A stretch of DNA of 55,067 nucleotides from Patescibacteria group bacterium (GTDB lineage Bacteria > Patescibacteriota > Minisyncoccia > Phycocordibacterales > UBA1550). A program made the translations under genes and the position numbers. Of this stretch, positions 2,719 through 34,800 are shown in pieces; the first letter of the stretch is position 1; every line of letters starts with the position of its first letter. The notes under the pieces are model-generated. The model was given only the letters and a program-made list of their open reading frames with translations. It was not told the origin of the DNA and did no database searches. The stretch spans positions 22,668-77,734 of the forward strand of contig JBBTWP010000002.1 of the NCBI GenBank assembly GCA_038062675.1, read 5' to 3'.

Positions 2719-4428
2719 ATGAAGGAGAAATTGGAAATACTCGTGCGTGAGGCACTTGGGGCGCTGGGAGTGGAGGCGACCGCGATTGTTATCGAGCGAC
2801 CGGCTGACATGGCGCATGGAGACTACGCGACAAATGTCGCTCTTGCGTATGCAAAAAAAGCAGGAATGTCACCGCGTGTGCTTGCAGGGAAACTTACGGA
2901 GGAGCTCTTGCGCATGCCTACCGAGGAGATAAAAAATATCGAAATCGCCGGTCCGGGGTTTATCAACTTCAGACTTTCGGATGCGCATTTGAAAGGTGCG
3001 CTCGCTCTGGCGCTCGAGCAAAAAGAAAAGTGGGGGAGCAACGGAACGCTTGTGGGAAAAAAAGTGATCGTTGAATACACCGATCCCAACCCATTCAAAG
3101 AATTTCATATTGGGCATTTGATGGCGAATGCCATCGGTGAGTCTATTTCACGCCTCGTCGAAGCGAGCGGTGCAGAAACAAAACGCGCCTGCTACCAAGG
3201 GGATGTAGGGATGCATGTGGCAAAGGCGGTGTGGGGGATTATGAGGCTAGAAAAGGAAGGGGATATTCTTGCACAGAACGCTTCGGTTCTTGAACATGCA
3301 GCATATCTTGGTAAGGCATATGCCAAGGGAGCTACTGCGTATGAAGGGGATGATTCCATAAAAAAAGAAATTGTTGTAATTAACAAAAAAATATACGAGC
3401 GCGGTGACCTTGGCGTAAACAATGTTTACGATACAGGGAAACAGTGGAGTCTGCAGTACTTTGAAGCAATTTATCAAAAGCTCGGCACAAAGTTTGACTA
3501 CTATTTTTTTGAGAGCGAAACGAGAAAGTTTGGAGAGGAGATTGTGAGAAATAGTGTAGGTAAAGTATTTGAACAAGGGGAGGGTGGAGCTATTGTGTAC
3601 AAAGGCGACGAGACAAAGGGTTTGCACACACGCGTGTTTGTGAATTCAGAAGGACTGCCGACGTATGAAGCAAAAGAGCTTGGTTTGGCGAAAACAAAAT
3701 ATGATACGTATCCGTATGATATGTCGGTGGTGGTCACAGCCAATGAACAGAATGCGTATTTCAAAGTGTTGCTTGCGGCAATGGCGGAGATATTTCCCGA
3801 GCTTGCGGAAAAGACTATTCATATTTCCCACGGAATGCTTCGTTTGCCAACGGGCAAAATGTCGTCACGCACAGGTGATGTCATTACGGCAGAAGGGCTT
3901 ATTGAAGAAGTGAAAACGCGCGTCCAAGAGAAATTCAAAGAGGGCATGTTTTCTCCTGACGAAAAAGAAAAAGTTGCGGAACAGGTGGCGATTGGCGCGA
4001 TAAAATACTCGATTCTTCGCCAAGCATCCGGAAAAGATATTATTTTCGACATGGAGCAGTCGCTGTCGTTTGAGGGCGACTCGGGTCCATACTTGCAGTA
4101 TACCCATGCGCGCACGTGTTCGCTCCTTGCAAAAGCAGAAGGGAAAACTATTGACGCGATGAAGTTTGAAGGAGAAATTGGTACACTCCACAAGTATCTC
4201 CTCCAGTTTCCCGAGGTGGTGTTCCGCGCGAGCGAAGAACGTGAACCGCATCATGTGACGACCTATTTGGTTGAGCTCGCCCGTGCATTCAACGCTTACT
4301 ATGCAAACACGCCCGTCCTCGATGGCTCCCCCAACGAACCCTACAAGCTTGCGCTTGTCCAAGCCGTGTCACAAACCCTCAAAAAAGGCCTTGAGCTTTT
4401 GGGGATACCAACACCTGAGCGGATGTAG
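2719..4428 (+). CDS. argS: Arginyl-tRNA synthetase
   Basis: 569 aa with a class I HIGH motif (FHIGHLMANAIG) and the KMSKS-equivalent GKMSSRTGDV. Length and C-terminal anticodon-binding-like region are typical of bacterial ArgRS. Confidence 0.94.
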   Translation: MKEKLEILVREALGALGVEATAIVIERPADMAHGDYATNVALAYAKKAGMSPRVLAGKLTEELLRMPTEEIKNIEIAGPGFINFRLSDAHLKGALALALEQKEKWGSNGTLVGKKVIVEYTDPNPFKEFHIGHLMANAIGESISRLVEASGAETKRACYQGDVGMHVAKAVWGIMRLEKEGDILAQNASVLEHAAYLGKAYAKGATAYEGDDSIKKEIVVINKKIYERGDLGVNNVYDTGKQWSLQYFEAIYQKLGTKFDYYFFESETRKFGEEIVRNSVGKVFEQGEGGAIVYKGDETKGLHTRVFVNSEGLPTYEAKELGLAKTKYDTYPYDMSVVVTANEQNAYFKVLLAAMAEIFPELAEKTIHISHGMLRLPTGKMSSRTGDVITAEGLIEEVKTRVQEKFKEGMFSPDEKEKVAEQVAIGAIKYSILRQASGKDIIFDMEQSLSFEGDSGPYLQYTHARTCSLLAKAEGKTIDAMKFEGEIGTLHKYLLQFPEVVFRASEEREPHHVTTYLVELARAFNAYYANTPVLDGSPNEPYKLALVQAVSQTLKKGLELLGIPTPERM

Positions 4429-25464: not shown

Positions 25465-26232
25465 TTATTGCCCCGCTTCCTTTTTTTGTCCCGCATACCC
25501 TGTGTATGCCTGCATCAATTCAAGAGGAAGGGTGAAGACGACGGTGTTGGATTGGTCGGAAGAAATGTCGTTGATGGAGTTGAGGGTCCTCAAATGAAGC
25601 GCCCCAACACTTCCTGATAAAATTTTGGCAGCCTGCGCAAGGTTTTGTGCCGCAGAAACTTCACCCTCGGAGTTGATGATGACCGCACGGCGTTCGCGTT
25701 CTGCTTCTGCTTGTTTTGCGATCGTGCGTACCATGTTCTCAGGGAGTTCAATGTCTTTGAGCTCAACCGATGCCACATCCACACCCCAACCTTTTGTTGC
25801 TTTGTCGATAATTTCCTCAATCTGGTCTGAAATTTTCTGACGTTCCGCAAGGAGTTCGTCGAGGGTGACAGAACCGGCAATGTTGCGCATGGTGGTTTGT
25901 GCAAGTTGGAGCACGGCGTAGTCAATGTCTTGGATGTCGATAATCGCTTTTGCAACATCCGTGATCTGGTAATAAATCACGGCATTTATTTTTGCCGAGA
26001 CGTTGTCTTTGGTAATAGCGTCTTGAGAGGGGACGTCGACAGTTTTTAAACGTACGTCAACTCTTTTGATGCTCTGGAATACGGGAATGACCAAGCGCCA
26101 CCCCGGGTTTGCTACGCTCGTAAATATCCCAAAGGTGAATCGTACGCCACGCTCCCATTGATCTACTTGTTTGATGCTGGCAAGGAGGAGAATCACCAGC
26201 ATTACTATCCCATATGTTATTAATGTAGTCAT
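25465..26232 (-). CDS. SPFH/band-7 (stomatin/slipin-like) membrane protein
   Basis: N-terminal TM followed by ...VDQWERGVRFTFG...VDVPSQDAITKDNV...AVIYYQI...TLDELL...GWGVDVASVELKDIELP, typical of the SPFH domain. Confidence 0.9.
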   Translation of the reverse strand: MTTLITYGIVMLVILLLASIKQVDQWERGVRFTFGIFTSVANPGWRLVIPVFQSIKRVDVRLKTVDVPSQDAITKDNVSAKINAVIYYQITDVAKAIIDIQDIDYAVLQLAQTTMRNIAGSVTLDELLAERQKISDQIEEIIDKATKGWGVDVASVELKDIELPENMVRTIAKQAEAERERRAVIINSEGEVSAAQNLAQAAKILSGSVGALHLRTLNSINDISSDQSNTVVFTLPLELMQAYTGYAGQKKEAGQ

Positions 26233-26293: not shown

Positions 26294-27313
26294 CTACTCT
26301 ACCTCCTTGAGCTTTTCGCGGATTTCTTTCAAAATGTCGGCACGAACGGCCTTGTTTTCTTTTTCAGCGAGGAATGTGCAGGCGGAGTCGTATCCACGGC
26401 CGATTTTGATGTCGCCGTAAGCATACGAAGAGCCAGACTTTTGGAGGATTTCAAATTTCTCCCCCAGGGTCAAAATTTCGCCTTCTTGTGAAATACCTTT
26501 TCCGTGAATGAGGTCAAATTCGGCTTGCTTGAATGGCGAAGCAACTTTGTTTTTAACGACTTTTACTTTAGTGCGACTGCCGATAACCTCATCACCTTTT
26601 TTGATTTGTGCAATGCGACGAATGTCGAGGCGAACCGAGGTGTAGAACTTGAGCGCCTTGCCCCCCGGTGTAGTTTCTGGGTTGCCAAACATGACACCAA
26701 TCTGCATGCGGATTTGGTTAATGAAAATGACGATGGTCTTTGAGCTGGCAACAATCGCGGTGAGCTTGCGGAGAGCCTGTGACATGAGGCGCGCTTGCTT
26801 GCCGACATGGTGTGCGCCCATATCGCCTTCGATTTCGTCTTTTGGAGTAAGCGCAGCGACCGAATCCACCACGAGTACGTCGATTTTTCCTGAACGGACG
26901 AGACTCTCTGTGATTTCGAGCGCTTGCTCGCCGTTGTCGGGCTGTGAAATGAGGAGCTCGTCGACGTTGACGCCGAGCTTGCGTGCGTAGTCAGGGTCCA
27001 TGGCGTGCTCAGCGTCAACAAAGGCGCAGATACCGCCCATTTTTTGTGCCTCCGCAACCACGTGGAGGGTAAGTGTGGTCTTACCTGAAGACTCTGGTCC
27101 AAAGATTTCAATAATACGGCCGCGGGGAAGTCCACCAACGCCGAGCGCGTAGTCGAGCCCAATAGAGCCGGTGGGGATGGCGTCAATGCCAACTTTTGGC
27201 TTGTCGCCAAGTTTCATGATGGAGCCTTCACCAAACTTTGCCTGGATAGCCTTGATAGTGTCCTCAATATTTGCGCCGTGCTCTTTAGGTGCCTTTGCTG
27301 GTTTTTTTTGCAT
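26294..27313 (-). CDS. recA: Recombinase RecA
   Basis: [36 protein letters not shown] (Walker A), LVVDSVAAL, and [28 protein letters not shown]. Confidence 0.97.
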
Positions 27314-27317
27314 AAAA

Positions 27318-27683
27318 TTAAAAGTTATTTAAGGGTTGTTCTGGGTGCAGGATTATTTCTATTTTTTTCTCAGTCGTGCGACCGTACCGATCTTTTGCCT
27401 CAACGCTTATTATATTATACCCTTCGGCAAGGAGCAATTGTCCTGAAAAGTTCCCCTCGAGATCCAAAGCTGTCGGTGCGTCGTTTATGGTGAAGGAATT
27501 TACGTGTACAGCATGGCCTATGATTGTGACAAGGGCAGTTGTTGTGGAAAAGCCTGTTTGGGGTGTTGTAATAGTAATCCGCGGACCTTGGATAAAGCCC
27601 GCAAGGGTTATTATTGAATACCCGCCGACGATGACGAGTCCAAGGATGATCGCTATTCGTTTGAGCAGTTGGCGACCGTACAT
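27318..27683 (-). CDS. Small membrane-anchored protein with an Ig-like ectodomain (hypothetical)
   Basis: N-terminal TM ([21 protein letters not shown]). It ends 4 nt before the recA start, so it is probably co-transcribed and translationally coupled. Confidence 0.72.
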
Positions 27684-27688
27684 ACAAA

Positions 27689-29953
27689 CTAAACTTCACC
27701 CTCAGTTCCTGGTTTAATTAAAACCAATCGTGCTTTGGCACCGTCGCCGGGACCTATCACGCTCCGTGCTTCAAGCATGTCGACCAATCGTGCTGCTCGT
27801 GCATAACCAACCTTAAACTTTCTTTGTAGGTAGGAGACAGAAGCTTTTTGACTTGAAATAACCTCCTGACGGACCTCCTCATAAAGGTCGTCATCCGCTT
27901 CCTCATCACTTTCTTCGGATTCCTCATCAAATGATGAGGAAAAGAGGGCGTCCCGTCCTGCCCCTGTGGTTCCTTGCGAGAAGTTAATCTCGTCGGGGAT
28001 TTGGTCGGCAGTTATTCCGTTGACAAGGTGTTTGACAACCGCCTTGAGCTCAGTTTCTGAAACAAAGGCGGATTGAATGCGCGTAGGCTTAGACATTTCA
28101 CCTGATATATAGAGCATGTCGCCGGCACCAAGAAGTTTTTCTGCACCTGATGCGTCCAAAATAGTGCGCGAGTCGATTTGTGACGAGACTTGGAGGGCGA
28201 TGCGGGCAGGGATGTTGGCTTTGATGAGCCCCGTGATGACGTTTACACTAGGGCGTTGCGTTGAAAGGATAAGGTGGATGCCCACGGCGCGACTCATCTG
28301 GGCAAGGCGCACGATGGCGCTCTCGAGCTCGCGTGGGTACGCTTGCATGATGTCGGCGAGCTCGTCCAAGATGATGACGATATAAGGAAGGCGCTCGGGG
28401 AGAACCTCAGGTTCTTCATCTGCACTCTTTGGTGCTTTTTTTGCTGCGGCTTTGAGTGCCGGCTCGAGGATGTTCTTGTGGTAAGAAGAAATGTCACGCA
28501 CCGACTCGGCTTCGAGGATGTTGTACCTTCTGTCCATTTCTTTTGCCGCCCATTTAAGGGCAAGGATGGCTTTCTTAGCATCGGTAATGACGGGGGTGAG
28601 GAGGTGGGGGATTTTGTTATAGAGGGTGAGTTCAACGCGCTTGGGGTCGATCATGATGAGGCGCAGATTCTCAGGAGCATTTCTAAAGAGGAGTGAATTG
28701 ACGATGGCGTGAATGGTAACGGATTTTCCCGCACCGGTTGCTCCGGCAATAAGGAGGTGAGGCATTTTGCCGAGGTCAGCAAAGTAAAGCTTTCCCGAGA
28801 CGCCACGACCGAGACCAAGAAGGAGCGGCTTGGGAGATTTTTGGTATTCTTCGGACGAAAACACGGTGCGGAGTCCGACGACTGTTTTGGTCGAGTTGGG
28901 GACTTCGATTCCAACGAGCGACTGCCCCGGAATAGGTGCCTCAATACGAATGGGATGTGCCGCGAGCGCGTAGGAGAGTTCATTTTGGAGTCCGGCAATG
29001 CGTGCAAGCTTGACCCCTTCGGCGGGCTTTAGTGCGTAGCGTGTGATCGAAGGTCCGATAGATACTTCATCCATTTCTACGGTGATACCATACTGTGCGA
29101 GGGTGCGTTTAATAATGTGCGCGGTTGCTTTGATGTCGCCCACGCCGGGCTTGCCACGATCGCCTTCAAGGAGGGTGAGTGATGGAGACGTGTAGGTGCC
29201 CTGTGTGTACTTGCTGAGTGGCATGCCGTCAAATGCGCCTTCATCTTTTCTTTCTTTCGTCTTAGTGATGTTGGCAACTGCCTGCGCAAGGAGGGGAGGT
29301 GTGCGCGAAACTTTTTCTTCCTCTGAGGTGGCATCTTTTTCATTTTTTTGAGCCGCACCATTTTTGATATCCATGTCCTCAATGTCGTCTTCAGTTTCTT
29401 CTGGAGTGTCCGAAAGTTCTTTTCTCCAGAATAAAAGTTTTGAAAAATTTGGTCGCGTGTTGAACATCACAAGGAAAGAAATCGCTAAAAATGCGATGAG
29501 AAAAATTGTTGCAACATAGGTGTCAAAAAGCTTCACAAGGGGGATTGAAATCATGCGCCCAAAAAGTCCACCGGCATTGTCGCCGGAAAAGATATTGATC
29601 AGTCCGAGCGAAGAGAAAAGAAAAAGAAATGCACCAAGGCTCGCGGTGATGGCGAGGTTGGGGCGGGACGCGCGCAGAAAAGAAACACCAAGAAGAAAGA
29701 AGAGTGTAGGAAGAATGAAATAGCCGACACCGAGGAGGTATTCAAATCCGCTGTAAATATTTTCTCCGACGAGCCCCGCCTTTCCAAAAGGTGCCACAGA
29801 AAAGAAAACACCGACCACGAAAAAGAGGATGGCAATCACCGTGTGGCGAGTCTCGTCCGAGAGGCCGGCGAGAAGTTCTATGCCCGACAAACGAGAATCT
29901 TTCTTGTCTTCAGTCACCTCATTCTTTTTTCGTCCGCGAGTTTTTTTTGCCAT
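27689..29953 (-). CDS. ftsK: DNA translocase FtsK/SpoIIIE
   Basis: N-terminal polytopic membrane domain, an acidic linker, a motor domain with LLIAGATGAGKSV (Walker A) and IVIILDELAD (Walker B), and a C-terminal gamma-like wHTH (SVSYLQRKFKVGYARAARLVDMLE). Confidence 0.94.
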   Translation of the reverse strand: MAKKTRGRKKNEVTEDKKDSRLSGIELLAGLSDETRHTVIAILFFVVGVFFSVAPFGKAGLVGENIYSGFEYLLGVGYFILPTLFFLLGVSFLRASRPNLAITASLGAFLFLFSSLGLINIFSGDNAGGLFGRMISIPLVKLFDTYVATIFLIAFLAISFLVMFNTRPNFSKLLFWRKELSDTPEETEDDIEDMDIKNGAAQKNEKDATSEEEKVSRTPPLLAQAVANITKTKERKDEGAFDGMPLSKYTQGTYTSPSLTLLEGDRGKPGVGDIKATAHIIKRTLAQYGITVEMDEVSIGPSITRYALKPAEGVKLARIAGLQNELSYALAAHPIRIEAPIPGQSLVGIEVPNSTKTVVGLRTVFSSEEYQKSPKPLLLGLGRGVSGKLYFADLGKMPHLLIAGATGAGKSVTIHAIVNSLLFRNAPENLRLIMIDPKRVELTLYNKIPHLLTPVITDAKKAILALKWAAKEMDRRYNILEAESVRDISSYHKNILEPALKAAAKKAPKSADEEPEVLPERLPYIVIILDELADIMQAYPRELESAIVRLAQMSRAVGIHLILSTQRPSVNVITGLIKANIPARIALQVSSQIDSRTILDASGAEKLLGAGDMLYISGEMSKPTRIQSAFVSETELKAVVKHLVNGITADQIPDEINFSQGTTGAGRDALFSSSFDEESEESDEEADDDLYEEVRQEVISSQKASVSYLQRKFKVGYARAARLVDMLEARSVIGPGDGAKARLVLIKPGTEGEV

Positions 29954-29997
29954 ATAAATTACTCATCTATAGTAACAGAAAACAACCAAAGATTAAA

Positions 29998-30018
29998 ATG
30001 TCTTTTTCTAAAAGACAT
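29998..30018. promoter_or_regulatory. Perfect inverted repeat ATGTCTTTT-TCT-AAAAGACAT in the ftsK / wHTH-gene divergent region (candidate operator)
   Basis: Arms are 9 bp with a 3-bp spacer. The half-site is one base different from the AAAGGACAT motif repeated through the downstream gene. Confidence 0.5.
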
Positions 30019-30027
30019 AAGCAAGGA

Positions 30028-30057
30028 TTGACTTTTCATGGATGTCCGTTATACAAT
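30028..30057 (+). promoter_or_regulatory. Promoter-like TTGACT-18-TACAAT
   Basis: -35 at 30028..30033 and -10 at 30052..30057. The spacer contains ATGTCC (a motif half-site). If this promoter is used, ATG 30042 cannot be the start codon. Confidence 0.45.
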
Positions 30058-31055
30058 GGACAAATATTTTGAGCGACAAATTCAGGAAGAGTTTACAACT
30101 GCATAAAGGACATCAAAAGGACATAAAAAATCACTTCATGGACATAAAAAAAGATATTCAGAGTCAAGGAATGTTGAGCCAGCAATCAAAAGGTGGTATG
30201 GAGGTTTTTGCTGCGTCGACCATGAAAAAAACCGAACGCTTGGCAACGGCGCTCTACCTTGTAACCAACTTTCTTCCCGATGCTGAACCGCTTAAACTTC
30301 GCCTGAGAGAGCTCGCTCTCGAACTGGTTCGCGAAGCTTCAAATGTCCGATACGGGACCAGCGGTGTTGAAGCGCGTGTCCTTGAAGACATCCAAACAAA
30401 CATCGGAGAGACACTCACCCTGCTTGAACTCGCGTTCATTTCCGGAGCAATTTCCGAGATGAATTTTTCTATTTTGAAACGCGAATACGTTTCTTTGCGT
30501 GGGGCGGTTGAGATAAAAAAAGTATCAAAAGAATCACGCACGGACACCCTTCTTGGGGATTCGTTTTTTGGGTTACCGTTTGGAGGTGAAGAACGTCGCG
30601 CGCTTCCTCGGGTAGGGTACAGTGCAAACCTCCCGCATCTTGCGGCTGTGGACAGTGAGGCGGGGAAGTTTTCAGAAAGCACAGTTCTTTCTCAAGGACA
30701 TGATAAAGGACATTCAGAACATAAAATGTCCTTGAAGATGTCTGATACAAAAGCCAAAGAAAAAACAGGGAACGTTCCCGTAAAGGAAAAGACAGATAAA
30801 GGACATTCTTTTTTGTCGTCATCTCAAAAACCTAATGCGCTCAGCACGCCGAATGAAATCCAAAAAGATTCTCGTCAAACGCGAATATTGAAACTCATAA
30901 AGGACAACAAAGAAGTCACGATAAAGGACATTACATTTTACTTTCCTGAATTGTCTGAAAAAACCATCCAGCGAGAACTCATCTCCCTTGTCGAAGCAAA
31001 TGTCCTTAAGAAGTCCGGCGAGCGCCGTTGGTCACGCTATTCTCTCGTAATTTAG
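30042..31055 (+). CDS. Winged-helix (DeoR-type C-terminal HTH) DNA-binding protein; start uncertain
   Basis: The C-terminus RQTRILKLIKDNKEVTIKDITFYFPELSEKTIQRELISLVEANVLKKSGERRWSRYSLV is a typical wHTH. A helical N-terminal region (MKKTERLATALYLVTNFLPD...) is followed by a K/H/S-rich linker. In-frame ATGs at 30138, 30171, 30198 and 30222 are alternative starts. Confidence 0.75.
   Translation: MSVIQWTNILSDKFRKSLQLHKGHQKDIKNHFMDIKKDIQSQGMLSQQSKGGMEVFAASTMKKTERLATALYLVTNFLPDAEPLKLRLRELALELVREASNVRYGTSGVEARVLEDIQTNIGETLTLLELAFISGAISEMNFSILKREYVSLRGAVEIKKVSKESRTDTLLGDSFFGLPFGGEERRALPRVGYSANLPHLAAVDSEAGKFSESTVLSQGHDKGHSEHKMSLKMSDTKAKEKTGNVPVKEKTDKGHSFLSSSQKPNALSTPNEIQKDSRQTRILKLIKDNKEVTIKDITFYFPELSEKTIQRELISLVEANVLKKSGERRWSRYSLVI
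30105..31007. repeat. Dispersed AAAGGACAT / ATGTCCTT motif copies inside the wHTH gene
   Basis: Exact AAAGGACAT at 30105, 30116, 30705, 30798 and 30923. One-mismatch copies at 30693 (CAAGGACAT) and 30899 (AAAGGACAA), and GGACAT at 30140. Reverse ATGTCCTT at 30726 and 31000. Confidence 0.85.
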
Positions 31056-31068
31056 AAAACTCTTTTCT

Positions 31069-31162
31069 CGGTGTGAGGGTTGCGCGGCACGCGTATTTTT
31101 CTGCTGAAAAATCGCTCTGCTCGGGTCGTCACCCTGCGCAAGGCTCCGCAACCCTCACACCT
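31069..31162 (+). other. Long-range inverted repeat (15-bp arms, ~64-nt interior) just after the wHTH gene
   Basis: GGTGTGAGGGTTGCG (31069..31083) pairs with CGCAACCCTCACACC (31148..31162). The interior has a smaller hairpin GCGTATTTTT/AAAAATCGC. This may be a terminator or a structured RNA. Confidence 0.4.
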
Positions 31163-31313
31163 TCGATGAGTTTTCTAATTTCAAATCGCAAAACCCAATT
31201 TTTGTTGCATTTCGTTCATTTTTCTGCTATGCTGGTTGGGTGCGGAGTGCTGTCGGTGAAGGGTGAATATGGAGGTCATATTCAGCTGTCCACGAGTTAT
31301 CCACACATATGTT

Positions 31314-31342
31314 TTGCAGGTTTGTCTTGCAGAATATATAAT
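31314..31342 (+). promoter_or_regulatory. Near-consensus promoter TTGCAG-17-TATAAT
   Basis: -35 at 31314..31319 and -10 at 31337..31342. There is no convincing CDS until ATG 31900, so it drives either a ~550-nt leader or an ncRNA. Confidence 0.5.
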
Positions 31343-31480
31343 GTATCTAAGTTCAGTACGGTGGAGAAATCCGCGGCACTGGATTTAGGCGTAATAATGT
31401 TGATCGCTCAACATTATGAAACATAGAAAGCTCCCGGCAGACGATAGATTGCAAACACGGGGGAAGGTCATTGAAAACTA

Positions 31481-31551
31481 GGCTCACCACGCAAAATTTT
31501 TTAGCAATTTTACTTTGCTGTTTTTTTCTTGAAAATTTTGCGTGGTGGGTC
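31481..31551 (+). other. Large hairpin (16 perfect bp, extendable to ~21 with G-U pairs) with a 31-nt U-rich loop
   Basis: CACCACGCAAAATTTT (31485..31500) pairs with AAAATTTTGCGTGGTG (31532..31547). Confidence 0.5.
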
Positions 31552-31899
31552 TTGCATAGGAAGAACATCACACAAAAATGGTGCGCTTTCAGTGTGCGTT
31601 AACGATGACCTTTGACCCTTGTGGTCGAAGCACTACCGAATCGGCTTAAGAAACGACAGAACGACATTTATCATTATGCAGCTAACTCTCCGTGGTGCAC
31701 TCTCGCAAGAGCTTGCACTGCAGAGACGTAAGTCAAAATCACGCGAGCATATCAGCACCGAGCTTTCTCTCAACAATAATTAATAGAGAGAAGCACGTGT
31801 CGAAGCTGATTTAATTCGCGTGCGCGTCACTGCGGTTTTTCAGTACATTAAGTTGTACTGAACATTGCGAGTGACATGAGGAAAGAATAAAAATTAATT

Positions 31900-34800
31900 A
31901 TGAGTAAAAAATCAATTGCGGGAGTGATCGCATTGGTGGCTGGCTTTTCGTTCATTGCTTCAGCAATGGCGGCAACCATCACCTTTACGACATCTCTCAA
32001 ACAAGGTAGTACCGGCATGGATGTGAAAAACCTCCAGATGGTACTCAACATGAGTTCAGACACACAAGTGTCTACGGTAGGAGCAGGTTCACCGGGAAAT
32101 GAGACAAGCACGTTTGGTCCTGCGACCAAAAAGGCTGTCATGAAGTTCCAGGAGAAATATGCTTCTGAAATTTTAGCACCGGTTGGCCTTACTTCAGGAA
32201 CCGGATTTGTTGGTCCTTCAACTCGCTCGAAACTTAACATGGTTGCGGCAGGAGGAGTTTCAACAGGTTCTACAAGTACCATCCCTGGTTGTACTTCAAC
32301 CGCTGGATTCAGTCCAACGACAGGTCAATCATGCGCAGGCGCTGTAGTTACTCAGCCACCAGCTGCAGGAACAACAACGACTTGTACAACGGTGGGCAGT
32401 GTAACGACATGTACGACAACCAGCGGAACTTCGGTTTCAGGTGGTCTTACTGTTTCAGCACCTGCACAGCCGGGTAACGGTCTTGCTGTAGAAAGTGCAG
32501 CGCGCGTTCCATTTACCAAAGTTACTCTTACAGCAGGAGCTTCTGATGTAACAGTAAATGGTATTACGGTAGAGCGCACAGGTGCGGCAAGTGATTCCGT
32601 CTTCTCTGGCGTTGTCCTTGTTGATGAGGATGGTACTCAGCTCGACATCGCAAAGACATTTGGTTCAACACACCAGGCTACGGTTGGTGGTACCTTTACG
32701 GTAAAGGCAGGAACTTCAAAGACTTTGACGATTGGAGGAAATATTGCAGCAGACCTTAGCTCTTACGCAGGTCAGGTTGCAAGTATCTCGGTAGTAAGTG
32801 TAAACACATCAGGAACAGTTTCTGGTGCGCTCCCTATTTCCGGAGCAATGCACACAGCTAATAGTACGCTCACAATTGGTACTGCTGTAGGTTCAACGTC
32901 ATCATATGATCCAGGAACAACAGCAAGTAAAGCAATTGGTACGACTGGCTACAAGTTTACAGGCGTTCGCGTTACAGCTGGTTCAGCTGAGGATGTTCGC
33001 TTGAAAGCAACTCGCTTCTATCAGGCTGGTTCAGCAGGGTCAGGCGATCTTTCAAATGTGAAGATCTATGTTGACGGAACAGCTTACGACACGACGGTTT
33101 CAGCAGATGGTAAGTACTACTCTGCAAACTTTGGATCAGGTATTGTCATCGCTAAGGGTCTTGGGAAAGACATCTGGATTGCTGGCGATATCACTGGTTC
33201 TGGTTCAGCTGCACGCACGGTTGACTTCGACATCCAGAAGAACACCGACGTATACGTTGTTGGCGAGACTTACGGGTACGGAATTATTGGAAGTGGCACA
33301 ATTACCACATCAACTCCTTCGTTGAATGGTTACGCTCTTACAATCAATGCAGGTTCAGTAACTTCGGTTAACAAGGCTCTTTCAGTAGGAGCTCAGAACG
33401 TTGCTGTTAATGTTGCGAACCAAGTACTTGGCGGATACGAAGTTGATCTCAAGGGTGAGCCAATTTCAGTTCAAAGTCATGTATTTACTATCGCTTCAAC
33501 AACTGGTAGTGGCACAGGTCTCTTGACAAGTGTTTCTCTCTACAACGTCAACGGAGCTATTGTAGCTGGTCCAGTTGACGCAGTGTTTGTTGATGCTACG
33601 ACACAAACAGTAACCTTTACCGACACCGTAACCTACCCTATCGGCAAGAGTATCTACACTCTTAAAGGTAAGGTGGCTTCAGCTATCGGTAATGGTGGTA
33701 CGTACATCGTAAAAACAACTCCTTCTTCACAGTGGACGAGTGTAACAGGTCAGACGACTGGAAATACAATCAGTCTTTCTTCTCTTTCTACTCAAGTTGT
33801 GATGAACACAATGACAGTACGAGGCGCTGCTCTTGGTGTTAGTGTATCAACACAGCCACCTGCACAGACTGTTATTACAGGTTCACAAGGATTCACGTTT
33901 GCTAACGTCCTCTTGGATGCTAGTCAGTCAGGTGAAGATGTACGATTCTCTTCAATCCCACTTGCTATGACATTCGCGACAATGGTGGTAAGTGAAGCAA
34001 CTTCATGTCAACTCTTTGATGGTACAACGGCTTTGAACACAGGTTCAAACGTAGTGAACCCATCAGGAGCTTCAGATGCTGATACGACATTCACATTCGA
34101 TCAGTCATTGGTAGTAACAAAGGGAACAGTTAAGACTCTTGCTCTTAAGTGTAATGTTGCAAGTTCGGTGTCAGCTGATGATACTCTTTCATGGGGTATC
34201 AACGCAGCACCTACAATTGCAGTAACAGGTGTAACTTCAGGAAATGATGTAACTGAAACAGTTACCGCTTCAGCTGGTCAAACAATGACCGTTGCTGCAA
34301 CTGGTTCTTACACAGTAACAAGTGATGCAGCACTTCTCTACAAAGCAGTTCAAGCAGGAACAACAGGTGTTGAGCTTGCTAAACTTCGCTTTACTGCTGG
34401 ATCATCTGAGAATATTAGTTTGAAGCAAATTGCTCTTGAGTTGGGCAACACATCTTCAAGTTCACCTGCTGATCTTTCTGGTCAGACGGTAACCTTGTGG
34501 AATGGCGCAACTCAGATTGGTACCGCACAGTTTGGTGTTGGTGCTTCTCCTGACAATGCAACTTCTACTCAATTGTCTCCTGCTCCAACAATTACTGCTG
34601 GAGAATCAGTGATGATTACTGTTAAGGGTGACCTCACAGCTCACAACGCAGTCGAAGGAACACCAGGCGCATTCTTGTCTGTAACCTACGATGGTAATAA
34701 CGTTGGAGTTAACGGTAACTACGCTCTTGGAGTTTCTTCTCAAGCAAACATTAGCTCGGGAACAACTTCAGATGTAACAACGACTGGCATGAGAATCTTC

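Follow-up and report, generated by a model that had tools for sequence, protein, structure and literature searches.

A short DNA box, TAAARGACAT, was found in about a dozen copies over the promoter, leader, and coding sequence of the gene for a small DNA-binding protein (hereafter, the regulator). Hundreds of related species preserve this arrangement in their nucleotide sequence, which indicates that the array most likely consists of the regulator's own operators, embedded in the gene that encodes it. The array lies in a window (the whole stretch of DNA that was analyzed, 55,067 nucleotides) from a groundwater Parcubacteria/Paceibacteria bacterium, where the gene adjoins ftsK-recA; the window sequence was matched only in DNA metagenomes (groundwater). 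Next to nothing has been established about how genes are regulated in Parcubacteria/Paceibacteria, which make up a large uncultivated section of the Candidate Phyla Radiation. The locus provides a candidate regulator-operator pair, with this breadth of conservation, beside ftsK and recA, core genes of division and repair.

Boxes in the window and at the regulator gene

Exact AAAGGACAT was found at 30105, 30116, 30705, 30798, and 30923; these five copies, all confined to 30105-30931, are the only ones in the window. Shuffled sequences contained 0.66 copies on average, and five or more were reached in none of 100 shuffles. The sequence-only reading had listed these copies together with one-mismatch copies (30693, 30899, and 30010), reverse copies (30726, 31000, and 30042), and a palindrome, and had judged the motif to be more frequent here than chance explains; the positions and the judgment were both borne out. 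GGACAT was present at 30140. Four of the exact copies lie within the longer ATAAAGGACAT (30103, 30703, 30796, and 30921), and the fifth has CAAAAGGACAT in place of ATAAAGGACAT. As for AAGGACAT, 10 copies were observed in the window compared to 1.77 expected, and eight of these ten fell within 30106-31007. The copies in orthologs gave the consensus (A)TAAARGACAT, an asymmetric 10-11-mer. A weight matrix was then built from orthologs, and a score of at least 14 bits was taken to define a strong box. Ten such boxes were located in 29997-31010, and the remaining 54 kb of the window contained two, at 25750 and 49367. The features of the locus are as follows.

26294-27313, minus strand: recA (Pfam RecA)
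27318-27683, minus strand: p121, a membrane-anchored protein of 121 aa, between ftsK and recA
27689-29953, minus strand: ftsK (Pfam FtsK_SpoIIIE, FtsK_gamma)
29997..30019 (exact 29998-30018), both strands: palindrome ATGTCTTTT-TCT-AAAAGACAT, a reverse box of 14.7 bits and a forward box of 16.6 bits
30028..30057, plus strand: predicted sigma-70-type promoter of the regulator gene, TTGACT-18-TACAAT, 10/12 consensus matches
30042..30063, both strands: inverted repeat ATGTCCGTTATACAATGGACA of two degenerate boxes, flanking and overlapping the predicted -10; reverse arm 10.2 bits
30103..30125, plus strand: two tandem leader boxes 11 nt apart, ATAAAGGACATC (17.9 bits) and CAAAAGGACATA (15.4 bits)
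30135..30158, plus strand: two degenerate boxes, TTCATGGACATA over the start codon (6.7 bits) and AAAAAAGATATT (7.8 bits)
30138..31055, plus strand: regulator gene, 305 aa, with the start codon ATG 30138 taken from homologs and gene callers
30342..30392, both strands: three weak boxes in the part coding for the four-helix bundle, reverse at 30342 (6.8 bits), reverse at 30375 (5.6 bits), and forward at 30381 (GTGTCCTTGAAGACAT, 9.7 bits)
30691..30748, both strands: linker cluster, forward at 30691 (14.0 bits) and 30703 (18.5 bits), reverse at 30725 (15.0 bits), weak reverse at 30737 (5.5 bits)
30796..30807, plus strand: linker box ATAAAGGACATT, peptide DKGH, 18.5 bits
30897..30932, plus strand: two boxes 24 nt apart, ATAAAGGACAAC (9.9 bits) and ATAAAGGACATT (18.5 bits)
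30999..31010, minus strand: reverse box (plus strand AATGTCCTTAAG), peptide NVLKK, 14.8 bits, in the part coding for the wing

The palindrome is located between the divergent ftsK and regulator genes, immediately before the regulator -35 and at a distance of 44-65 nt from the start codon of ftsK. It is kept in the three closest relatives, and a box stands at an equal distance before TTGACT in the orthologous loci L003, L006, and L008. The predicted promoter elements TTGACT and TACAAT are invariant in close relatives, and their architecture recurs in many orthologs. The predicted promoter (30028-30057) falls within a longer open reading frame that starts at 30042; the true start is ATG 30138, as in homologs and gene callers. 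The inverted repeat ATGTCCGTTATACAATGGACA is invariant in alignment A3 and is likely the primary operator. Similarly, TGTCCGTTATAnAATGGACA recurs in 13 orthologs, and TATAAT or TATAAA followed by GGACA is observed in many more. Downstream, the two leader boxes form a conserved island amid an otherwise variable leader, and orthologs carry two to four leader boxes with an 11-nt period. The spacings of the first three copies, 11 and 21 nt, agreed with the earlier description.

Within the gene, the boxes at 30135..30158 encode the conserved N-terminus M-D-I-K-K-D-I; in orthologs the second start-region copy is a full AAAAAGACAT box, and the N-terminus MD[IY]KKDI is conserved. At the position orthologous to 30342..30392, a strong reverse box AATGTCCTT with the peptide ANVLE was observed in L001-L006, L010, and L020, and AAATGTCCGATA and CGTGTCCT from this region are invariant in A3. 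The linker cluster encodes QGHDKGHSEHKMSLKMSD, in which KGHS and MSD are the sole conserved islands of the family's variable linker, with fixed codons, and a second KGH island is found in many homologs. The boxes at 30897..30932 fall in the part coding for the first helices of the winged helix (peptide LIKDNKEVTIKDI), and 24 nt is the commonest direct spacing. The reverse box at 30999..31010 is also invariant in A3. The motif had been described as read in two frames, K-G-H and K-D-I. This applied to 30705 and 30798 (K-G-H) and to 30923 (K-D-I), but not to 30105 and 30116, which are non-coding and belong to the 5' leader. On the other side, the ftsK-p121-recA string (26294..29953) has gaps of 4-5 nt, is divergent from the regulator gene, and is likely its co-regulated neighbor; the downstream neighbor of the regulator gene is non-coding DNA.

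Nucleotide-level selection and conservation across Paceibacteria

Codon statistics and synonymous shuffles were obtained for 76-81 orthologs in both orientations. K-G-H was encoded by AAAGGACAT in 24 of 31 cases, compared to 6% expected, and its Gly codon was GGA in 30 of 31 (27% in the background). MSD began with ATGTCC in 12 of 16 cases, TCC making up 9% of background Ser codons. The Asp codon was GAC in all 40 cases of KDN and in 57 of 71 cases of KDI, compared to a background of 42%, and VLKK began with GTCCTT or GTCCTA in 29 of 34 orthologs. When the 76 coding sequences were shuffled synonymously, forward boxes numbered 60+-5.6 (152 observed) and reverse boxes 15+-3 (51 observed). These statistics indicate that selection is acting on the DNA and that the peptide is not its target, as the sequence-only reading had proposed. 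Forward copies (182) and reverse copies (76) in orthologs showed a flanking T at -3 at nearly the same frequency, 73% and 75%, respectively. This equal preference in both orientations, together with the copy pair upstream of the -35, points to recognition of double-stranded DNA.

The peptide islands that are conserved in the family (MDxKKDI, KGHS, MSD, IKDN..IKDI, and NVLKK) are the boxes themselves. The corresponding protein stretches (MDIKKDI, KGHS, MSD, IKDN..IKDI, and NVLKK) would thus be dictated by the DNA, because the box sites must be kept. The gene presents a clear natural case of overlapping codes, where a two-orientation DNA motif inside a gene fixes synonymous codons. Furthermore, conserved "peptide motifs" in a disordered linker, which would otherwise be read as functional protein motifs, are explained by DNA boxes, and this calls for caution in interpreting short conserved islands in disordered regions.

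The regulator family was found in more than 540 Paceibacteria species, and the divergent order and orientation relative to ftsK-p121-recA was observed in 79 of 80 ortholog loci. Across the 80 loci, the gene together with 300 nt of upstream sequence contained 84 copies of AAAGGACAT, and the 525 kb of flanks contained none, so that the motif did not behave as a general repeat; in the non-coding upstream part its density was 0.83 per kb compared to 0 in the flanks. AAGGACAT likewise occurred at 1.1-1.2 per kb in the gene and upstream region compared to 0.023 per kb in the flanks, and box clusters elsewhere within +-4 kb of the ortholog loci were absent. The array was kept in orthologs down to ~30% protein identity, and a few orthologs, such as L031 and L017, had few or weak boxes at the chosen threshold. 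Two outcomes that the sequence-only reading had named as refuting it, an equally frequent motif elsewhere and its absence from orthologs, were therefore not observed. Outside the window's sublineage, the positions of boxes relative to ftsK varied widely. Within this sublineage, ftsK could plausibly be controlled through the boxes, which stand 44-65 nt from its ATG.

The regulator protein and its fold

The structure model of the regulator consists of a four-helix bundle (residues 20-143), a disordered linker of ~95 residues (144-237), and a C-terminal winged helix-turn-helix (238-303), with pLDDT above 90 in the domains. The HTH_DeoR profile (PF08220) matched residues 246-292 of the 305 in the window protein at 21.4-21.7 bits, a marginal score at a cut-off of 21, and matched all 118 homologs with a best E of 6.4e-9; HTH_11, Penicillinase_R, and HTH_20 also matched this HTH. 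The DeoRC effector domain (PF00455) was found in 0 of 118 homologs. Membership in the DeoR family was therefore not supported: the earlier label of a DeoR-type winged helix fits the C-terminal HTH, which matches at threshold, but no DeoR sensor domain is present. The order of domains also differs, since the DeoR family has an N-terminal HTH followed by DeoRC, whereas the HTH is C-terminal here. In the fold search, the winged helix gave ArsR/BlaI-type matches. The putative recognition helix SEKTIQRE and the wing GERRWS.Y were invariant in the 118 homologs, in parallel with an invariant box. Covariation of the box and the recognition helix gave no signal, including in a Lloydbacteria-like subgroup with weaker boxes, because both are invariant.

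The N-terminal domain superposed on proteins of the S23-IVS (PF05635) type and on Avd, the accessory protein of DGRs, with target-normalized TM scores of 0.75-0.85: 2gsc at E 8e-4 and TM 0.80-0.82 (rmsd 1.7-1.9 over ~106 columns), 2rld at TM 0.81-0.85, and Avd (8ub7 chain B) at TM 0.75. The PF05635 profile itself matched weakly in two of 118 homologs (best E 0.011), and the family profile found no match among PDB chain sequences. S23-IVS and Avd proteins are single-domain and contain no sequence-specific DNA-binding domain, in contrast to the regulator. The fusion of an S23-IVS/Avd-like four-helix bundle to a winged helix is an unreported architecture, and among the solved structures searched, no such fusion through a long disordered linker was present. 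The matched PDB entries list five chains, A-E, each. By analogy with these fold relatives, the regulator may be oligomeric, and a five-chain assembly would be in keeping with multivalent binding to sites scattered in any orientation. Likewise, the modeled fusion suggests that one oligomer could read scattered sites at any spacing or orientation.

Proposed role of the arrays and alternative explanations

Three readings had been offered from the sequence, namely an autoregulatory, a centromere-like (parS-in-parB style), and a nucleoid-organizing site cluster. Among them, the autoregulatory one fits best, given where boxes are placed, across the predicted -10, the leader, and the start codon. We consider that the box is probably the recognition site of the encoded protein and that the copies together form the operator array of a multivalent autorepressor. 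In the proposed mechanism, the N-terminal four-helix bundle would oligomerize and the C-terminal winged helix would bind the box, with the disordered linker joining both. The inverted pair over the -10, the palindrome before the -35, and the 11-nt-phased leader and start-codon boxes would then shut off the gene's own transcription, and the promoter-region boxes would probably also affect the divergent ftsK-p121-recA string in the window's lineage. The boxes scattered over the coding sequence in both orientations could serve as auxiliary operators that raise local occupancy. One oligomer with several flexibly tethered DNA-binding heads may bridge sites by looping, and the intragenic boxes may also, or alternatively, block elongation.

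A promoter operator combined with downstream intragenic sites is familiar from lac O2 in lacZ, gal OI in galE, purR O2 in purR, and the three looping operators of E. coli DeoR, and self-repression by a site-bridging oligomeric repressor, which we presume here, would be a shared property. However, about eight intragenic sites are found here instead of one, and these occupy, in both orientations, the coding sequence of the regulator itself. They are also conserved over a class-level clade, fix codons, and create the linker's only conserved islands. The four-helix bundle with a C-terminal winged helix is, moreover, an architecture unrelated to LacI, GalR, PurR, and DeoR.

In related genomes, box arrays were also found at the yraN-tRNA-cca-rpsO locus. 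The box is thus not private to the regulator gene, and a small regulon is likely. When metagenomes were scanned for two copies lying within 30 nt, 120 loci were obtained, of which two had the regulator gene and nine had cca; most of the 120 were rejected as true targets, as they look like chance pairs in unrelated DNA, with at most a few boxes each and no regulator or ftsK homolog. A more far-reaching reading, which we put forward tentatively and hold to be possible rather than probable, is that a multivalent, possibly pentameric, bundle/winged-helix protein reads box arrays that have colonized coding sequences and imposed on them a second DNA-binding code. As part of this tentative reading, the arrays in the CCA-adding enzyme of related genomes would grow and shrink as in-frame loop insertions of KGH, NVL, and IKD peptides, and the ftsK-recA and yraN-tRNA-cca-rpsO loci might together constitute a small hub, linking genes for division and repair to those for tRNA and RNA maturation in these reduced genomes.

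The cca-type arrays of L117, L204, and L205 had no copy of the regulator gene within 10 kb. This, together with the lack of covariation between box and recognition helix, would suit another Paceibacteria DNA-binding protein as the binder, with the regulator gene merely one target beside yraN, cca, and rpsO. We regard this explanation as unlikely, since the array is tied to the regulator gene in most of 80 species at 30-50% protein identity and is absent from the flanks, and since the product of the regulator gene itself has a DNA-binding domain, whose putative recognition helix is invariant. Self-targeting is, in addition, the rule among bacterial repressors. A LexA-like gene near the L204 cca array had no strong box upstream, and no other conserved candidate regulator was found beside the arrays. 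A literature search on the motif and on DeoR, FtsK, LexA, and SOS in Patescibacteria found nothing on the regulator family or the motif. The Patescibacteria SOS network was reportedly the subject of Sanchez-Osuna et al. 2017.

The arrays could instead be structural chromosome sites, centromere-like or nucleoid-organizing, with gene regulation secondary; the protein would gather a few multi-box loci, near ftsK and at cca, for segregation or compaction. Dense two-orientation arrays at few loci (up to ~10 copies in 240 bp at the L117 cca locus), the conserved position beside the DNA translocase FtsK, and a predicted multivalent protein whose long flexible arms could bridge sites are consistent with such a role. 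The centromeres of omega and ParR, which also serve as operators, offer an analogy: R1 parC/ParR (11-bp iterons) and pSM19035 omega (7-bp heptads, direct and inverted) share with our array the short repeats, ~11-bp phasing, mixed orientation, and a position across the predicted promoter of the putative binder's own gene, and cooperative multivalent binding is presumed here as well. Nevertheless, ParR and omega are ribbon-helix-helix dimers that work with a ParM or ParA NTPase encoded next to them, whereas the regulator has a predicted winged helix, neither a ParB nor a ribbon-helix-helix fold, and no ParA, ParM, or other partition NTPase among the neighboring genes, and its sites are chromosomal and run through the coding sequence. 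Two types of array locus are known and no more, and boxes placed exactly over the predicted -10, leader, and start codon suit the needs of a repressor and not those of a centromere. A structural role is accordingly improbable. The comparison with parS inside parB/spo0J applied insofar as a putative site within the binder's own gene constrains its coding sequence. It failed in other respects, as parS consists of one 16-bp palindrome to which ParB binds as a CTP-dependent, spreading clamp, whereas the box is a 10-bp asymmetric sequence in many copies and the protein had no ParB-family Pfam/NCBIfam match.

An action of the motif in mRNA, through hairpins or through binding of the forward copy (Shine-Dalgarno-like AAAGGA) by a protein or by ribosomes to control translation or stability, is very improbable. 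AAGGACAT at 30706 and ATGTCCTT at 30726 could pair in an 8-bp stem, some ortholog boxes stand at Shine-Dalgarno distance from ATG (e.g., AAAGGACATACAATG), and the excess of forward over reverse copies noted above would also suit it. However, reverse copies are synonymously constrained even where no forward partner is near, for instance at ~+150 and ~+775 from KKTEK (a conserved motif near the regulator N-terminus that served as the reference point). The strongest palindrome precedes the predicted -35 and is hence outside the mRNA, and same-orientation arrays have no pairing partner. Rfam searches of 27-33 kb (E<=1) and 31300-31950 (E<=10) gave no credible family for the motif or the downstream non-coding stretch. 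Because AAAGGACAT is absent from the 525 kb of flanks, it does not precede other genes there and is not the general ribosome-binding site, and an FtsK-orienting (KOPS-like) sequence was rejected on the same ground. Lastly, the view that the copies have no function, having arisen from codon bias and the repeated peptides KGH and IKD or clustered by chance, is refuted for practical purposes: the box-containing peptides are conserved in the family and IKD-type residues are usual at the corresponding position of DeoR-like HTH domains, but synonymous shuffles that keep the protein and codon pool yield 2.5- to 5-fold fewer boxes, and the non-coding upstream copies are equally enriched.

The sequence-only reading had called the array iteron-like. 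Pairs and triplets with 11-nt spacing occur in the leader, yet the array as a whole is dispersed over 1 kb in mixed orientation. The term could not be upheld in the sense of a replication element, as the protein contains no Rep or DnaA domain and the locus is a conserved chromosomal ftsK-recA neighborhood. Even though DnaA-box-like 9-mers were present near several arrays, a replication origin was rejected for the window, where GC skew is positive with no sign change and genes lie mostly on the plus strand.

The regulator gene and its box array

Reading of the region 29700-31300 confirmed every box position, both reading frames (K-G-H and K-D-I) and the spacings of 11 and 21 nt reported by the sequence-only reading; read in its third frame, the box opens with a TAA stop codon. 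The 55-kb window has five exact copies of AAAGGACAT, none of them outside 30105-30931 (shuffles: mean 0.66, none with five), and AAGGACAT has 10 copies on both strands, with 8 within 30106-31007 and 1.77 expected. The GGACAT hexamer alone was not enriched across the window (32 vs. 24.7), so that what stands out is the longer box, clustered locally. The open reading frame from 30042 (337 aa) is over-long, since its alignments with over 2100 homologs begin at residue 33, and the database protein for the window is shorter. With the true start and the promoter placed as listed below, the copies at 30105 and 30116, previously taken as coding, both fall in the 5′ leader, and GGACAT at 30140 shares sequence with the start codon. 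The gene holds six strong boxes, a number reached by 0 of 1000 synonymous shuffles. When the region was aligned with those of its three nearest relatives (protein identity 91, 73 and 65%), the boxes stood out as invariant islands amid a variable leader and linker.

Features of the regulator region in the window
29998-30018: palindrome ATGTCTTTT-TCT-AAAAGACAT, correctly described before
30028-30057: predicted sigma-70-type promoter TTGACT-18-TACAAT, inside the longer reading frame
30042-30063: inverted repeat ATGTCCGTTATACAATGGACA, with the -10 hexamer inside it
30138-31055, forward strand: regulator gene, start ATG 30138, 305 aa
31070-31170: long inverted repeat GGTGTGAGGGTTGCG...CGCAACCCTCACACC directly after the regulator stop codon, probably a terminator hairpin
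27318-27683, reverse strand: gene of a 121-aa protein between ftsK and recA

An AlphaFold model of the regulator, built with 118 homologs as input, gave three parts.

Predicted parts of the regulator
Residues 20-143: four-helix bundle, confident (pLDDT >90)
Residues 144-237: disordered linker
Residues 238-303: C-terminal winged helix-turn-helix

Foldseek matched the bundle to 2gsc and 2rld (S23-IVS family; TM 0.80-0.85; five chains per entry) and also to the DGR protein Avd, and the C-terminal domain to ArsR/BlaI-type winged helices; PF05635 matched weakly in 2 of the 118 homologs. A putative recognition helix, SEKTIQRE, and the wing GERRWS.Y were invariant among these homologs. HTH_DeoR of Pfam was found in 118/118 homologs, with the window protein barely above the cut-off, and a DeoR sensor domain was found by Pfam in neither the window protein nor the homologs. 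The earlier label "DeoR-type" does not hold as family membership, as the domain order is wrong and the sensor domain is absent. On the opposite strand, the neighbours are a complete FtsK, the membrane-anchored 121-aa protein and RecA, with gaps of 4-5 nt. The 121-aa protein, conserved in 68/80 loci, combines an N-terminal membrane anchor with a Glucodextran_B-like beta-sandwich (Pfam E 8e-12); its fixed association with ftsK and recA was unexpected.

Conservation in orthologs and selection on nucleotides

An ortholog scan with one genome per species placed relatives in at least 540 stretches, and 80 loci with 28-52% protein identity were retained (Yonath-, Nomura-, Taylor-, Lloyd-, Zambryski- and Campbellbacteria, Paceibacterota, Minisyncoccia). 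The order recA, 121-aa protein gene, ftsK and then the divergent regulator gene was the same in 79/80 of them. As shown below, the DNA box is kept at this protein divergence, and it is not a general repeat.

Box occurrence in the ortholog loci
AAAGGACAT, count: upstream 300 nt, 20; gene, 64; flanks (525 kb), 0
AAGGACAT, per kb: upstream 300 nt, 1.08; gene, 1.21; flanks (525 kb), 0.023

The 258 aligned sites gave the consensus (A)TAAARGACAT, and a T three bases before the core was as common in reverse as in forward copies, and as common in non-coding as in coding ones. A weight matrix at a 9-bit threshold gave a density of 4.4 sites per kb for the gene region vs. 0.16 per kb for the flanks, and no ortholog locus had a second box cluster within ±4 kb. 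The site map, counted from the conserved KKTEK motif near the protein N-terminus, was alike across the loci.

Ortholog site map
50-250 nt upstream of the KKTEK motif: box cluster
About +100 to +160: one box
+380 to +530: linker box cluster
Helix-turn-helix coding part: two boxes
Near the 3′ end of the gene: reverse box

The box-bearing peptides coincide with the family's conserved islands (MD[IY]KKDI, KGHS, MSD, KGH, LIKDNREVTIKDI and NVLKK), so that conservation might have been of the peptide or of the DNA; codon choice decides between the two. In addition, each of 76 coding sequences had its synonymous codons shuffled, a conservative procedure because the protein and the gene's own codon pool are retained.

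Codon choice and synonymous shuffles
K-G-H: AAAGGACAT in 24/31 (background 6%)
Gly of K-G-H: GGA in 30/31 (background 27%)
M-S-D: ATGTCC in 12/16 (background: TCC is 9% of Ser codons)
Asp of K-D-N: GAC in 40/40 (background 42%)
Asp of K-D-I: GAC in 57/71 (background 42%)
Forward boxes, 76 coding sequences: observed 152; shuffled 60±5.6 (mean ± sd)
Reverse boxes, 76 coding sequences: observed 51; shuffled 15±3.0 (mean ± sd)

As judged from codon choice and from the shuffles in both orientations, selection acts on the DNA and not on the peptide, as had been proposed.

Box placement and proposed mechanism

The inverted repeat around the -10 hexamer is found in the window and close relatives and is invariant in the four-way alignment; family-wide, TATAAT or TATAAA very often has GGACA directly after it. 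Following a variable stretch of ~40 nt, 2-4 tandem boxes with an 11-nt period extend from the ribosome-binding region across the start codon into the first codons, so that the N-terminus M-D-Y-K-K-D-I-K-D of relatives is written as AATGGACTACA-AAAAAGACATT-AAAGAC. Direct neighbours were mostly spaced by 11 or 24 nt, with smaller groups at 21-23 and 30-33 nt, which would roughly fit helical phasing with a contribution of codon periodicity. This placement suggests that the regulator is a self-repressor. The palindrome lies 44-65 nt from the ftsK start codon, which makes box control of the ftsK-recA string in the window plausible; the inference is weaker than that of autoregulation because more distant loci place their boxes variably with respect to ftsK.

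We favour double-stranded DNA over RNA as the recognized form. Reverse copies are under synonymous constraint like forward ones, often with no forward partner nearby; the flanking T is kept in both orientations; the strongest palindrome falls between divergent genes, on the upstream side of the predicted -35 element; and tandem same-orientation arrays have no pairing partner. Rfam returned nothing for the box region, and the window sequence was in none of the RNA libraries.

The array is a real, strongly conserved cis-element, and its reading as a multivalent autoregulatory operator is well supported but unproven. The winged helix would bind TAAARGACAT, and the four-helix bundle, whose fold relatives are deposited as five chains, may oligomerize the regulator. 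The flexible linker of 95 residues would then let several DNA-binding heads per particle reach boxes at any spacing or orientation. Transcription would be switched off once the -10 inverted repeat and the leader boxes are occupied, and intragenic boxes might serve as auxiliary operators by raising local concentration, by looping and/or by blocking elongation. In all, the data show the array, its conservation, selection at the nucleotide level, the overlap with the predicted promoter and the predicted fold, from which the binder, the sign of regulation, the oligomeric state and the part played by the internal boxes are deduced. Functionally, the system most resembles repressors that have auxiliary operators within genes (lac O2, gal OI, purR O2, DeoR looping). 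Also close are the ParR and omega repeat arrays, operator and centromere in one, although membership there is ruled out by the lack of a ribbon-helix-helix and a partition NTPase. Among the three earlier readings of the cluster, the autoregulatory one fits best with the promoter and leader placement, and parS-in-parB fails for want of a ParB domain and a 16-bp palindrome; the term iteron is likewise inapt, there being no origin, no initiator and a flat GC skew. Among the papers searched, none dealt with the regulator family or the box motif. The interest lies in how far a DNA-binding code is written into coding sequence, in the unusual predicted architecture of the regulator, and in a handle on regulation in an uncultivated clade.

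Boxes at other loci and a downstream element

Metagenomes were scanned for pairs of exact copies no more than 30 nt apart, which gave 120 loci, most of them apparent chance pairs in unrelated DNA, as expected given the collection size. Nine of the 120 were the CCA-adding enzyme gene of Paceibacteria-type contigs. Arrays at yraN-tRNA-cca-rpsO were followed in three loci of related genomes, L117, L204 and L205. The L117 enzyme has an in-frame insertion, ..SKGHSNNSKGHFNSENVLYKILKDKNFYKGHF.., that consists of box copies, again read in the permitted frames, and among its homologs (70-81% identical; P0121-P0135) the insertion ranges from absent to about 50 aa. The insertion peptides (KGH, NVL(Y), IKDI, MS) are built of TAAAGGACAT box copies.

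Box arrays at cca
L117 2590-2700; L204 9777-9848: box-built CCA-enzyme insertion
L117 4090-4320; L204 11260-11455: cca-rpsO intergenic array, about 8-10 TAAAGGACAT boxes

Dense non-coding arrays were also located at the start of yraN and in the cca-rpsO intergenic region. The array in that region, upstream of the S15-NYN-PNPase genes, has forward copies and then reverse ones (5 and 4 in 240 bp in L117), with the 9-mer TGTGGATAA in or beside it. L204, a 21-kb stretch of an NCBI Parcubacteria MAG, has 13 strong boxes in 8.9-11.5 kb and no box >12.3 bits elsewhere; L205 has five strong boxes. The named CCA-enzyme homologs (Taylor-, Zambryski- and Kaiserbacteria, Paceibacterota) belong to the same class as the regulator family. 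The box is therefore not private to the regulator gene, and the arrays at cca and yraN within this class point to a likely small regulon. Alternatively, another protein may bind the boxes: the cca/yraN arrays and the regulator gene were seen on separate stretches, and the window contains neither cca nor yraN. We consider this unlikely, and retain it mainly on that account.

L204 also encodes a LexA-like protein (3568-4197; Peptidase_S24, 209 aa), about 5 kb from the cca box arrays; its gene has the DnaA-box-like 9-mer TTATCCACA 53 nt upstream and no strong TAAAGGACAT box. LexA exists in the clade of this MAG and is probably not the box binder. Exact TTATCCACA also lies in 31297-31342 of the window, directly upstream of a strong promoter match, TTTGCA-17/18-TATAAT. 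It occurs 7-566 nt after the regulator stop codon in 61/81 loci, always on the regulator-gene strand, and 63/77 of its occurrences in these loci are at that downstream place. It is also found beside the yraN-tRNA-cca arrays of L117, L204 and L205, and upstream of the HU gene in L204, and appears to be a second promoter-associated element that is widespread in Paceibacteria.

Downstream of that promoter match lies about 550 nt of non-coding DNA (31343-31899). Rfam gave no credible match for this stretch, even at E<=10; a few strings in it resemble RNase P RNA. Blocks are kept in relatives (AAGTTCAGTG..CACTGGATTTAGGCGTAA..GAAAGCTCCCGGC..GGTCATTGAAAACTAG..CGGCTTA), a long hairpin lies at 31480-31553, and the stretch looks like a structured RNA.
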